Source: Escherichia coli
GTDB lineage: Bacteria; Pseudomonadota; Gammaproteobacteria; Enterobacterales; Enterobacteriaceae
Strand: one strand, 5' to 3'
DNA: 64,000 bases
Assembly: GCF_003018235.1 (NCBI RefSeq)
Contig: NZ_CP027437.1
A program made the position numbers and the translations under genes. The notes under the pieces were generated by a model, which was given only the letters and a program-made list of their open reading frames with translations, ran no database searches and was not told where the DNA came from. Shown here piece by piece: positions 17,856 through 24,036 of the stretch (position 1 is its first letter; every line of letters begins with the position of its first letter).

Positions 17856-17900
17856 CATACGCACAGAATGTGATGCCAGCACTCTGTGCGTATGCTTTTA
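17856..17900. terminator. Terminator hairpin after eamA (12-bp stem plus T-tract)
   Basis: CATACGCACAGA / TCTGTGCGTATG followed by CTTTTA; overlaps the stop codon of the convergent regulator gene. Confidence 0.65.
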
Positions 17901-18596
17901 TCGCGGGAAAAAGTACTTTACCTGGAACTCGAAAATATTGCTGTAAAGTAACGAATAATCCAGCGGAATAGAGTTACTGTCCACAGCCTGGGTCTGAATT
18001 TTAAGTATGGGATCCCGTGGGCTGATCCGTAAAATACTGGCGATTTCTGGGGTAGGAAAAGTAGGGGAGAAAGTTTCAAAGGTGCCAATGATTTTGATCC
18101 CGCATTCGTTCTCAATATACGAAAATTTGGATTTTTGCATATGTGCTACGGTTAAATCAGGAAAACGTGCCACTGACATCCACGTTTCTTCTAATTGTGC
18201 TGCATTATCCTCAATGAATCGCAGTCTCTTTATGTAATAAACCTGCTCACCAGTCACTAAATTCAGCTCAGTCGCAATAGGGGGAGAAGCATCCTGCACT
18301 TCAAATTTCATAATCTGACTTCCTGCCTCCTTGCCGCTTTTATGCGCAATTTCACTGAAGCTGTTCATGTGATCAATGTGTGCAACAAAATTCTTTTTTT
18401 GAATATATGTTCCTGAACCATGCTTTCTATGAATAATTCCTTCGCCTTCCAGCAAGGATAATGCCTTACGCAGGGTATTACGCGAAACATTATAACGAAC
18501 AGCGAGTTCAGCTTCTGACGGCAACAAATCACCAACATGCCATGAATAGCCATTGATCTCGGATTTAAGTAAGCGGGCAATCTTTTGAAAAATCAC
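17898..18596 (-). CDS. GntR/HutC-family transcriptional regulator (HTH plus UTRA effector domain)
   Basis: 232 aa; HTH segment AELAVRYNVSRNTLRKAL; divergent from the PTS operon. Confidence 0.85.
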   Translation of the reverse strand: MIFQKIARLLKSEINGYSWHVGDLLPSEAELAVRYNVSRNTLRKALSLLEGEGIIHRKHGSGTYIQKKNFVAHIDHMNSFSEIAHKSGKEAGSQIMKFEVQDASPPIATELNLVTGEQVYYIKRLRFIEDNAAQLEETWMSVARFPDLTVAHMQKSKFSYIENECGIKIIGTFETFSPTFPTPEIASILRISPRDPILKIQTQAVDSNSIPLDYSLLYSNIFEFQVKYFFPR

Positions 18597-18755
18597 TTTT
18601 GCACCTTTTAAGAGCCATTGAAAACAAGGAGTTGAGTCCTGATTGGTTTATCGTATGGCCGAGTCGTTTAATTATTACCCTGATGTTGAACAACTTTATT
18701 GCTGTATTACTGTGATCAATGTACCAGGACGTATAGCTACTGCGGGATATGATAT

Positions 18756-18768
18756 TTACACAATGTAA
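18756..18768. promoter_or_regulatory. Candidate operator palindrome TTACA-caa-TGTAA in the regulator/PTS divergent region
   Basis: Perfect 5-bp inverted repeat about 30 bp upstream of the IIB start codon. Confidence 0.3.
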
Positions 18769-18794
18769 TCTGTTATATACCAGTAAGGGAAAAT

Positions 18795-19106
18795 ATGAAA
18801 AAGATATTGTTAGTTTGCGCTGCGGGCATGTCAACCAGTATGCTGGTTAAACGTATGATTGATCATGCTAACGCTATTTCACTTGAAGTTAATATTTCCG
18901 CATTGGCGATTGCAGAGGCTAAAGGGAAAATTAAAAATAACGAAGTTGACGTTGTTTTACTTGGCCCGCAAGTTCGCTTTCAGAAACCAGAGATTGAAGC
19001 TGTTGCACAGGGGAAAATGCCTGTAGCTGTTATCGAGATGAAAGACTATGGCACCATGAACGGACAGGCAGTTCTTGAATTTGCGATGAAACTACTGCAA
19101 GAGTAA
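18795..19106 (+). CDS. PTS lactose/cellobiose-family EIIB component
   Basis: 103 aa, MKKILLVCAAGMSTSMLV... with the catalytic Cys in the CAAGMSTS motif. Confidence 0.9.
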   Translation: MKKILLVCAAGMSTSMLVKRMIDHANAISLEVNISALAIAEAKGKIKNNEVDVVLLGPQVRFQKPEIEAVAQGKMPVAVIEMKDYGTMNGQAVLEFAMKLLQE

Positions 19107-19229
19107 GAATCTAATATTATTAAACTATTACCTGAACTAACTTTTCACACATCATAAAATGGATATGGCATACATGCTTTATTGGGATGTATAAATATCC
19201 AGAACAACACGTATAAAAAAATGAGATTA

Positions 19230-20564: not shown

Positions 20565-20882
20565 ATGTTGATGTTTGCAGATGAAGAACTTGTTATGGAG
20601 TTACTGATCAACGCGGGACAGGCACGTTCTGATGCGATGGAAGCCATACGTTGTGCCGGGCAAAAAGACTGGCAGGGCGCAACTCAGCTAATGGCCAGTT
20701 CGGAATTAGCCTGTCTTCAGGCACATAAGATTCAGACCGCGTTAATTAGTCAGGATGAAGGTTGTGGCAAAATAGTAGTTAATTTAATTCTGGTTCATGC
20801 ACAGGATCATTTGATGAATGCAATATTATGCCAGGATTTAGCCAGGGAAATTATTTCATTAAGAAAAGAGCTCCATGCCTGA
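20565..20882 (+). CDS. PTS lactose/cellobiose-family EIIA component
   Basis: About 105 aa, ChbA-like (LVHAQDHLM motif); alternative start at 20571 with a GGAG RBS. Confidence 0.85.
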   Translation: MLMFADEELVMELLINAGQARSDAMEAIRCAGQKDWQGATQLMASSELACLQAHKIQTALISQDEGCGKIVVNLILVHAQDHLMNAILCQDLAREIISLRKELHA

Positions 20883-20937
20883 TTTTTTCCTCCAGTGCGA
20901 TAGCTGGAGGAAATTATTACACTCTTAAGGATAAGTC

Positions 20938-22611
20938 ATGAATATAAAGACGATTAACGTCAGCCTTTTGTCTTTTTCTATTATTACAGCATTGTTTCCG
21001 TTGAACGCGTTGGCAACAAAATTAACCATTGAGCAGCGCCTTGAACTGCTTGAAAATGAATTGTCGCAAAATAAACAAGAGCTGAGAGCAACACAGAATG
21101 AACTGGGGGTATATAAATCCCGACTTTCGACCTTACAAAAAAGTATTACGGAAAATAAATACAAATCAGCCTCACTTGCTGAAATATCAGCGACATCTCC
21201 CGTCGCTGATAACATCAAAAATGAAAACGGTGAACAGAACTCGTCTGCCGCAGCGCATACTATAAATGGATCGCAGCAAGTTGCCGTTATTGAAAGTAAA
21301 GGCGACAAAACCACTATCGAAAGCGTGACCCTGAAAGATATCAGTAAATATATAAAGGATGATATTGGGTTCAGCTATCAGGGGTACTTCCGCTCAGGCT
21401 GGGGTACCGGAAATCATGGCTCACCACAAACTTATGCAGCGGGTTCTCTGGGACGTTTTGGTAACGAGATGAGCGGTTGGTTTGACTTAACCTTAAATCA
21501 GCGTGTTTATAATCAGGACGGTAAAACGGCAAATGCGGTCGTTACCTATGATGGCAACGTAGGTGAGCAGTATAACGATGCCTGGTTTGGTGACAGTGCC
21601 AATGAAAATATCATGCAGTTCAGTGATATTTATCTGACAACGCGAGGTTTTTTACCCTTCGCGCCAGAGGCAGACTTCTGGGTAGGCAAACATAAACTCC
21701 CGCAATATGAGATCCAAATGCTGGACTGGAAAACCTTAACCACGGATGTCGCTGCGGGTGTGGGGATTGAAAACTGGGCACTTGGTGTAGGGCTGTTTGA
21801 TATGTCCTTAAGCCGTGATGATGTCGATGTTTACTCTCGTGATTTTACGCGTACCAGTCAGATGAATACCAATTCTGTGGATGTTCGTTATCGCAATATC
21901 CCGTTATGGGATGATGCAACATTATCATTAATGGCTAAATATTCCGCACCAAATAAAACGGATCAACAACAAGATAATGAAAATGACGACAGTTATTTTG
22001 AAATGAAAGATAGCTGGATGCTGACTTCTGTTTTACGGCAAAACCTGCAACGCGATACGTTTAATGAATTTACGTTACAGGTTGCCAATAATTCCTATGC
22101 CAGCAGTTTTGCCAGTTTCTCAGATGCCAGTAACACGATGGCGCATGGTCGCTATTACTATGGTGACCATACCAATGGGATCGCCTGGCGTTTAATCTCT
22201 CAGGGCGAGATGTATCTTACTGACAATATTATTATGGCTAACGCGCTTGTCTATTCTCATGGCGAAGATGTTTATAGTTATGAAAGTGGCGCTCATAGTG
22301 ATTTTGACAGTATTCGCACCGTAGTAAGACCGGCCTGGATCTGGAATACATGGAATCAGACGGGGCTTGAATTAGGCTGGTTTAAGCAACAGAACAAAAC
22401 ACAGCAGGGTGTAACACTAAATGAATCGGCTTATAAAACGACACTCTGGCATGCATTGAAAGTGGGTGAAAGCATTTTAGGTTCACGACCAGAAATTCGC
22501 TTCTATGGAACGTATATCAATATTCTGGATAACGAATTATCGAATTTTAAGTTTAATGAGAACAGCAAAGACGAGTTTATGGCCGGCATCCAGGCGGAAG
22601 TCTGGTGGTAA
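20938..22611 (+). CDS. LamB/ScrY-family sugar-specific outer-membrane porin with an N-terminal coiled-coil extension
   Basis: Signal peptide, then a heptad-like coiled-coil ([30 protein letters not shown]), then a barrel with LamB-like motifs ([11 protein letters not shown]-terminal ...AEVWW). Confidence 0.8.
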
Positions 22612-22635
22612 TCTATTTTAGTTAAGGAGTTGTGT

Positions 22636-23985
22636 ATGTCAGGATTTAAAAAAGGTTTTTTATGGGGTGGCGCGGTAGCCGCGCATCAGTTGGAAGGTGG
22701 CTGGAATGAAGGAGGAAAAGGCATCAGTATCGCTGATGTGATGACTGCTGGCGCTCACGGTGTGCCGCGTGAAGTGACAGAAGGCGTTATCGACGGACTT
22801 AATTATCCCAATCATGAAGCAATTGATTTTTATCATCGCTATAAAACAGATATTCAGTTATTTGCCGAGATGGGATTCAAATGCTTTCGAACTTCCATTG
22901 CCTGGACACGAATCTTTCCGCAAGGTGACGAACAGGAGCCGAATGAAGAGGGTTTAAAATTTTATGATGATCTGTTCGATGAATGCCTGAAGCAGGGAAT
23001 GGAACCTGTGGTGACGCTTTCGCATTTTGAGATGCCTTATCATCTGGTGACAAAATATGGTGGCTGGCGAAACCGTAAACTGATCGACTTTTTTATCCGC
23101 TTCGCATCAACGGTCTTCACGCGCTATAAAGAAAAAGTAAAGTACTGGATGACGTTTAACGAAATCAATAATCAGGTGAATTTCAGCGAAAGCCTGTGTC
23201 CATTTACTAATTCCGGTATCTTGTATTCGCCAGAGGAAGATATCAATGAGCGCGAACAAATAATGTACCAGGCGGTACATTACGAGTTAGTTGCCAGTGC
23301 TCTGGCAGTACAGACTGGAAAATCGATCAATCCTGAATTTAATATCGGCTGTATGATCGCCATGTGCCCCATCTATCCTCTGACGTGTGCACCCAACGAT
23401 ATGATGATGGCCACGAAAGCGATGCATCGTCGTTACTGGTTTACTGATGTTCATGCGCGTGGATATTATCCGCAACATATGCTGAATTACTTTGCCAGGA
23501 AAGGATTCAACCTCGATATCACACCAGAAGATAATGCGATTCTTGCCAGAGGTTGTGTCGACTTTATCGGCTTTAGCTACTACATGTCTTTTACGACACA
23601 ATTTTCGCCAGATAACCCGCAACTGGATTATGTTGAGCCACGAGATTTGGTCAGCAACCCTTATATCGATACATCCGAATGGGGATGGCAAATTGATCCG
23701 GCAGGGCTACGTTATTCACTCAACTGGTTCTGGGATCATTTCCAGTTGCCGCTGTTTATTGTCGAAAATGGATTTGGTGCGGTTGACCAGAGACAAGCTG
23801 ACGGCACGGTGAACGATCACTATCGCATTGATTACTTTGCTTCCCATATTCGGGAAATGAAAAAGCGCTACGGAATGATTTACGTCGATAAAGACAACGA
23901 AGGGAAGGGAACGCTGGAACGGATACGTAAAGCGTCGTTTTACTGGTATCGGGATCTCATCGCCAACAATGGCGAAAATATTTGA
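22636..23985 (+). CDS. Glycoside hydrolase family 1 6-phospho-beta-glucosidase
   Basis: 449 aa from [28 protein letters not shown] acid/base and VENGFG nucleophile motifs; AAGGAG RBS. Confidence 0.9.
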
Positions 23986-24012
23986 GACTTCAGGAAGATA
24001 TTACGGAGATAT

Positions 24013-24036
24013 CAGGCTCTGTGATCAGAGCCTGAC
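24013..24036. terminator. Hairpin between the convergent glucosidase gene and marB
   Basis: TCAGGCTCTG / CAGAGCCTGA stem with a 4-nt loop. Confidence 0.55.

Follow-up and report, generated by a model that had tools for sequence, protein, structure and literature searches.

Escherichia coli carries a set of cryptic beta-glucoside operons, which the passage of PMC4488073 that names them gives as bgc, chb, asc and bgl. The closest of these to the element considered here is bgc, described in the portion of PMC3585215 devoted to it as a five-gene operon encoding the IIB, IIA and IIC subunits of a phosphotransferase system (PTS) together with the phospho-beta-glucosidase BgcA, with BgcR as positive regulator; growth on cellobiose, arbutin and salicin and operation at low temperature are the phenotypes mentioned there. 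A Gram-positive counterpart, the bgu operon of Streptococcus pneumoniae, similarly places the GntR-type regulator BguR beside lactose/cellobiose-family PTS genes and a phospho-beta-glucosidase, and its authors themselves liken bgu to bgc in the same portion of that paper (PMC3585215), but BguR is a repressor whereas BgcR is a reported activator, and bgu has no porin. Here we analyze a 64,000-nucleotide stretch of E. coli DNA (contig NZ_CP027437.1 of assembly GCF_003018235.1; hereafter the window) in which a six-gene island occupies positions 17856-24036 between eamA and marB. We consider it highly likely that this interval is a copy of the already described bgc locus, in which bgcR is divergent from bgcE-bgcF-bgcI-bgcH-bgcA and whose PTS handles cellobiose and aryl-beta-glucosides, that its last step is most likely broken in this strain, and that it is an old resident of its site.

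The island is therefore no novelty in itself, being a characterized accessory sugar-utilization operon. The bgc operon (bgcR, bgcEFIHA) was described by Neelakanta, Sankar and Schnetz (Appl Environ Microbiol 2009, 75:2284), whose abstract reportedly mentions the porin BgcH, dependence on CRP, prevalence in phylogroup B2 and occurrence also in E. albertii, Klebsiella, Enterobacter and Citrobacter, points with which our own separate findings accord. Like it, the K-12 bgl operon (bglGFBH) feeds beta-glucosides through a PTS and includes genes for a LamB-family porin and a phospho-beta-glucosidase of glycoside hydrolase family GH1, and in the window BgcH is 53% identical to K-12 BglH over its length and BgcA 50% identical to BglB. 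In contrast to the three lactose/cellobiose-family PTS proteins and GntR activator of bgc, bgl relies on a single glucose-family EIIBCA (BglF) and the BglG antiterminator. The chb operon (chbBCARFG) shares with bgc the separate EIIB, EIIC and EIIA of the lactose/cellobiose PTS family; its regulator ChbR is of the AraC type, its enzyme ChbF belongs to GH4 and it includes no porin gene. The bgc PTS genes are not chb orthologs, because their products score far below the NCBIfam equivalog cutoffs (282 versus 760 bits for ChbC, 104 versus 148 for ChbA and 66 versus 157 for ChbB).

We assign the window island to bgc because gene content, the divergent GntR-type regulator, the locus in strain CFT073, the distribution among strains and secondary citations all match. 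The island encodes the five-gene series EIIB, EIIC, EIIA, porin and phospho-beta-glucosidase with a divergently oriented GntR-type regulator gene, and the same genes adjoin marB in uropathogenic CFT073 and are missing from K-12, where only 30 bp separate eamA and marB (strain MG1655). A six-gene block annotated "PTS system, cellobiose specific" in CFT073, c1955-c1960, has a patchy distribution according to the relevant section of a 2010 comparative study (PMC2831201). The window copy departs from the published operon by a 30-codon in-frame deletion in bgcA. A first-pass annotation, made from the letters of the window alone, had given the six open reading frames (ORFs) within 17856-24036 the same identities, order and orientation, had placed them where eamA and marB converge at their 3' ends, and had stated that these two genes are neighbors in K-12; the ORF list, Pfam and NCBIfam uphold it on each of these points, the interval in K-12 is not identical, and its functional reading was broadly right. 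What it had singled out as notable, a pathway with its own outer-membrane channel, is the published bgc operon, and a dedicated porin is normal in such operons, as the identity to BglH attests. The features of the locus, with the evidence for each, are as follows.

16954-17853, plus strand: eamA, O-acetylserine/cysteine exporter, left flank (Pfam EamA; RefSeq annotation at homologous loci; junction alignment).
17856-17894, no strand: left boundary hairpin between convergent eamA and bgcR (folding; inverted repeat; conserved in E. albertii).
17898-18596, minus strand: bgcR, GntR/HutC-type regulator with winged helix-turn-helix and UTRA effector domain, 232 amino acids, GTG start (Pfam GntR 8e-19, UTRA 6e-30; RefSeq "GntR family transcriptional regulator").
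18597-18794, no strand: divergent bgcR-bgcE control region, 198 bp (cross-genus alignment of intergenic regions).
18795-19106, plus strand: bgcE, PTS EIIB, lactose/cellobiose family, 103 amino acids, active-site Cys motif LLVCAAGMSTS (Pfam PTS_IIB 6e-19; motif in translation).
19221-20543, plus strand: bgcF, PTS EIIC permease, lactose/cellobiose family, 440 amino acids (Pfam PTS_EIIC 8e-46; NCBIfam TIGR00410, 339 bits against a cutoff of 236).
20571-20882, plus strand: bgcI, PTS EIIA, lactose/cellobiose family, 103 amino acids, HAQDH histidine motif (Pfam PTS_IIA 5e-31; motif).
20938-22611, plus strand: bgcH, LamB-family outer-membrane carbohydrate porin with N-terminal coiled-coil extension, 557 amino acids (Pfam LamB 9e-82, Sugarporin_N 1e-6).
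22636-23985, plus strand: bgcA deletion allele, GH1 6-phospho-beta-glucosidase, 449 amino acids (Pfam GH1, Glyco_hydro_1, 4e-114).
23852-23864, plus strand: deletion junction in bgcA, the single surviving copy of the 13-bp direct repeat GGGAAATGAAAAA (DNA alignment with the full-length allele).
24012-24035, no strand: right boundary hairpin, 10-bp stem and 4-nt loop, between convergent bgcA and marB (folding; conserved in E. albertii).
24042-24260, minus strand: marB, right flank (Pfam MarB 1.5e-33; RefSeq annotation).

The start of bgcF follows the RefSeq coordinate (19221), the mechanical ORF beginning at a TTG at 19182. With the exception of bgcA, the genes of the island (bgcR, bgcE, bgcF, bgcI and bgcH) are all full length with few substitutions, and their products carry the family hallmarks expected of them. 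The three PTS proteins belong to the lactose/cellobiose family by the PF02302 fold and cysteine of the EIIB, the PF02378 and TIGR00410 matches of the EIIC and the PF02255 match and histidine motif of the EIIA, while BgcR combines the N-terminal GntR winged helix-turn-helix and C-terminal UTRA domain of the HutC subfamily. BgcH, like ScrY and BglH, has a coiled-coil extension N-terminal to its LamB barrel. Although Pfam recognizes the LamB domain strongly, a sequence search of the porin against the PDB returned no match at E <= 0.001.

The age of the island was assessed from its distribution and from the sequence of its junctions. We compared the interval with 5426 complete E. coli genomes by megablast, scoring the island as present where at least 80% of it was matched. 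The flanks were found in 5419 genomes and the island in 2494 (46%), always at a single locus, and the first-pass annotation was thus right to treat it as accessory content. It had also described the island as inserted; if this is taken to mean recently inserted, the distribution outside E. coli speaks against it. E. albertii-like contigs have the island in the eamA-marB interval and preserve both of its junction hairpins; it is there 81.7% identical to that of the window, the flanks being 82-88% identical. Because E. albertii has identical junctions and an island as diverged as its flanks, the island is an old polymorphism rather than a recent arrival, and has held its site from roughly the separation of E. 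coli and E. albertii onward. In a scan of species representatives, the porin was present in the E. albertii type strain and in no other Escherichia representative.

The cassette was nevertheless acquired horizontally, the transfer into Escherichia being old. Porin orthologs of the same length and 80-83% identity occur in Citrobacter, Enterobacter and Salmonella enterica subsp. salamae. Both Citrobacter and S. salamae retain all six genes of the cassette at other chromosomal sites; in S. salamae it is flanked by genes for a serine acetyltransferase and a SpoU-family methylase (presumably cysE and trmL). End alignments show that homology with the Citrobacter and Salmonella cassettes stops at the coding regions, and the hairpins are therefore specific to the Escherichia locus. 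A related cassette in Kluyvera georgiana (5266-10531) contains the GntR regulator, EIIB, EIIC and a 75% identical porin, with a HAD-family sugar phosphatase replacing EIIA and the GH1 enzyme, which points to another way of processing the sugar phosphate once imported. These cassettes at different sites, together with an island G+C content of 42.5%, lower than that of the 10-kb flanks (47.9% and 48.4%), the absence of the island from K-12 and 54% of genomes, and the fact that the closest solved structures to BgcA are Gram-positive enzymes, could be taken to favor recent horizontal insertion into E. coli at an eamA-marB hotspot. We regard this as unlikely, given the identical junctions, conserved hairpins and matching island and flank divergence in E. 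albertii, the 2.4% difference of the GH1 gene between the window and CFT073, which we judge comparable to E. coli core-genome divergence, and an island that has neither mobility genes nor att-like repeats.

The genes eamA (plus strand) and marB (minus strand) converge on the bgc island from either side, and alignment of the empty site with the window shows that island-specific sequence extends from about 17846, inside the last three eamA codons and slightly ahead of the first-pass limit, to about 24039. The EamA C-terminus reads ...KVRG* in the window (17840-17853) and ...KVGS* in K-12 and other empty alleles, that of E. albertii resembling the island-bearing form, and at the other end occupied and empty alleles rejoin immediately ahead of the marB stop codon. 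An island of about 6.19 kb stands in place of about 39 bp of the empty site, and these 39 bp include a different hairpin of their own. The K-12-type allele has sequence that is absent from the occupied allele, and therefore simple excision cannot have produced it; it may be either a retained ancestral state or a re-import. The empty-site hairpin, GCCCCGAgatgTCGGGGC, shows a weak positional similarity to the right-hand hairpin of the island. That it is a diverged copy of the latter is doubtful, since a match at about half the positions of a 40-bp G+C-rich palindrome is unconvincing. No transposase or integrase ORFs are found in the island, as the first-pass annotation had stated, and a repeat search found no direct or inverted repeats flanking it; the hallmarks of a mobile element (integrase or transposase, flanking repeats, tRNA target) are lacking at this site between two protein-coding genes.

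The first-pass annotation had further described the island as precisely bounded by terminator hairpins. A stable hairpin is indeed present at each end, while the limits of the island itself are those given above and a terminator role is a reasonable reading of the folds. The left hairpin has a folding free energy (dG) of -21.7 kcal/mol on the plus strand (z -3.6) and -27.6 kcal/mol on the minus strand, with none of 200 shuffles as stable. On the plus strand CUUUUAU follows, and this hairpin is likely to be a bidirectional terminator. Segments containing the right hairpin have dG values of -18.8 and -20.4 kcal/mol (z -3.2 and -5.0), again with no shuffle as stable, and a U tract is present on neither strand, the short U run being confined to the left hairpin. 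A consensus terminator and promoter scan, the counts of which were at chance level, picked up neither boundary hairpin.

The defining peculiarity of the window copy, overlooked like the E. albertii island in the first-pass annotation, lies in bgcA, which measures 1350 bp and 449 amino acids against the usual 1440 bp and 479 amino acids of the gene annotated in the 99.7%-identical best match. In megablast comparisons the closely related genomes all match the query in two pieces and are about 90 bp longer, and the window and full-length proteins are 100% identical but for one 30-residue gap. The deletion is in-frame, spans 90 bp and removes full-length residues 407-436 (equivalently 411-440, owing to the repeat). 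Full-length alleles have two copies of GGGAAATGAAAAA with starts 90 bp apart, the lost 90 bp lying between them, and this direct-repeat signature marks the deletion as a presumptive slippage or short-homology event.

To what extent the deletion would affect catalysis can be judged from homologous structures. Full-length BgcA scores 1036 bits against NCBIfam NF007154, a 6-phospho-beta-glucosidase subfamily with a cutoff of 624, and matches the S. mutans structures 3pn8 and 4f66 at E 4e-241 and the L. plantarum structure at E 4e-224. The S. mutans and L. plantarum enzymes SmBgl and LpPbg1 (PDB 3pn8, 4f66 and 3qom; Michalska et al. 2013) share their catalytic glutamates with BgcA and, in the case of full-length BgcA, also the L8a loop. 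In SmBgl, Trp423 and Ala431 are part of the glycon (-1) site, and loop L8a (Ala430-Tyr440 in LpPbg1 numbering), with residue 432, Lys438 and Tyr440, serves phosphate binding (PMC3605045). With an alignment offset of +2, the BgcA equivalents are Trp425, Ala433, Gly434, Lys440 and Tyr442. Unlike SmBgl and LpPbg1, the window BgcA is without the segment that holds Trp423 and Ala431/Gly432: the deletion takes Trp425, Ala433/Gly434 and most of L8a, and the intact -1 tryptophan and L8a loop are seen only in the 479-residue alleles. Judging by the GH1 fold, the end of helix alpha7 and barrel strand beta8 would also be removed.

Hydrolysis by BgcA is probably lost along with its -1 subsite tryptophan and the greater part of the phosphate-binding loop, and we consider the 449-residue protein very probably inactive by analogy with the homologous structures. 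Since hydrolysis is probably lost, the pathway of the window strain is probably incomplete and the locus a decaying copy. This bears on the first-pass description of a complete uptake-to-hydrolysis pathway, which is not supported for this strain; an inactive GH1 enzyme had been named there as a finding that would speak against it, and that may be the situation here. It could instead be argued that the island is an intact working pathway in which the 449-residue GH1 protein is a tolerated length variant. The reading frame is kept, the catalytic Glu176 (acid/base, NEIN) and Glu377 (nucleophile, VENG) are both retained, the motif EMKKRYG is re-formed at the junction, PGAP labels the short form 6-phospho-beta-glucosidase without a pseudogene flag, and the allele occurs in dozens of assemblies. 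However, the conserved -1 tryptophan and most of L8a, both of which contact the glycon or phosphate in crystal structures, are gone, the 30 missing residues would include one of the core strands of the (beta/alpha)8 barrel, the deletion is rare among island-bearing genomes, and the homologs from other genera are all 479 residues long, making a functional short form a quite improbable explanation.

The locus would define the following route. Sugar would enter by way of BgcH, the BglH-like outer-membrane porin, and be imported by the EIIC BgcF with phosphorylation at O6', the phosphate being delivered from EI/HPr by way of the EIIA BgcI (His) and the EIIB BgcE (Cys). The GH1 enzyme BgcA would then cleave the 6'-phospho-beta-glucoside to glucose-6-phosphate and aglycone, the final step that in the window strain is most likely broken by the 90-bp slippage deletion. 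Transcription would require the GntR/HutC regulator BgcR as an activator, per the published work, with function at low temperature. For the window locus we infer the substrates and regulation, like the loss of enzyme activity; its genes and their families, its location and population frequency, the deletion with its recurrence and the synteny in E. albertii are shown directly by the sequences. A different cargo, such as chitobiose, lactose or another disaccharide, might be proposed on the strength of the partial matches of the PTS proteins to models of the chitobiose (Chb) and lactose systems. Every equivalog score for Chb or lactose is far under its cutoff, however, the hydrolase is a GH1 6-phospho-beta-glucosidase and not a 6-phospho-beta-galactosidase (249 bits against a cutoff of 610), BgcA matches SmBgl, which cleaves 6'-phospho-beta-glucosides, and the published growth is on cellobiose, arbutin and salicin; a substrate other than a beta-glucoside is accordingly very doubtful.

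Regulation may also involve CRP. Alignment of the bgcR-bgcE intergenic regions of E. coli, Citrobacter, Salmonella and Kluyvera revealed a conserved block, TTACTGTGAyCAATGTAmCA, within which a CRP-like site at 18711-18726 has two mismatches to the CRP consensus. This is a candidate CRP site only, kept for its cross-genus conservation.

Several observations weigh against the overall interpretation of the locus as a bgc copy with a broken last step. The bgc identity draws on architecture, the kind of regulator, the locus in CFT073 and secondary literature rather than on a sequence match to strain i484, and the members of the protein-collection clusters bear generic names only, none of them a "Bgc" name. 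By count, matches to the CRP consensus in the window are not above chance. Within the 449-residue sequence the lysine and tyrosine of the phosphate site remain alongside both catalytic glutamates, and the short bgcA allele is also without a pseudogene flag in RefSeq.

The deletion is uncommon but recurrent. A 37-bp junction probe (window 23840-23876) matched five of the 5426 complete genomes, and thus only five of the approximately 2560 island-bearing ones. The exact 449-residue protein was found in 52 blocks of the assembly collection. The contigs concerned stem from independent NCBI assemblies and sequencing runs, and one locus, that of GCA_040083855.1, matches the window at 100% identity across 7350 bp. 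An assembly or sequencing artifact, which short direct repeats can bring about by misleading assembly, is hardly credible given the same junction in five complete genomes and the exact protein on contigs of many independent assemblies and runs. At all 1350 remaining positions the window bgcA equals one full-length allele, and it differs from two other deletion alleles, both from complete genomes, at 21-24 sites; the three deletion alleles differ among themselves at 11-24 sites, and the other two are 100% and 99.9% identical to common full-length alleles. Because each deletion allele is 99.9-100% identical to a full-length allele yet distinct from the other two, the identical 90-bp deletion has arisen independently at least three times. 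This recurrent deletion, passed as a normal enzyme by annotation pipelines, is the only modestly new item in our analysis.

Other forms of damage were encountered at the locus. In E. coli O111:H2 12A and FDAARGOS_1059 (locus at 1956-2447) the 90-bp deletion is accompanied by loss of the segment from the bgcR 5' end to the bgcF 5' end, with the promoter region and bgcE gone. In NZ_CM129884.1 an insertion sequence (IS) of the IS3 family, ISAs22, lies in the porin gene, in NZ_CP051158.1 IS1 lies in the GH1 gene, and in one further E. coli locus (1303-2976) the porin is split into ORFs of 187 and 332 amino acids. In the E. albertii-like contig SRR21391058 (9001-11037) about 1.1 kb is deleted, leaving a 678-residue product in which the porin is joined to the C-terminal part of the GH1 enzyme, and such porin-GH1 fusions probably explain why porin and GH1 sequences share a 90% cluster in the protein collection. 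Five bgcA matches fall on records classed as plasmids, not chromosomes.

Two observations concern the remainder of the region. In the window lineage, the bgcF product has three residues (R2, S180 and C374) that neither of the two reference alleles shares, and only 24 contigs were seen to carry its exact sequence; the lineage-specific residues may reflect relaxed constraint after loss of bgcA. An Rfam scan of 14-28 kb gave no match inside the island. Outside it, between dgcZ and ydeE, the scan located STnc560 (RF01407, an Hfq-binding small RNA family) at 15143-15356 on the plus strand with 280 bits.

The recurrence of one and the same deletion raises the possibility, to our minds a slim one, that it is a favored off-switch for the phospho-beta-glucosidase that keeps transporter, porin and regulator in place, a step in the stepwise decay of an ancient polymorphic locus. 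If this were true, the off-switch might spare the cell toxic aglycones or stress from sugar phosphates, or release the PTS proteins for signaling. More immediately, automatic annotation names the 449-residue product a normal 6-phospho-beta-glucosidase, and metabolic predictions would therefore wrongly credit strains that have this allele with a working bgc pathway. The bgc locus thus offers a compact example of gene decay, in which one short-repeat deletion has come up repeatedly and other strains have IS insertions or larger deletions, set within a presence/absence polymorphism of the island that predates the split of E. coli and E. albertii.

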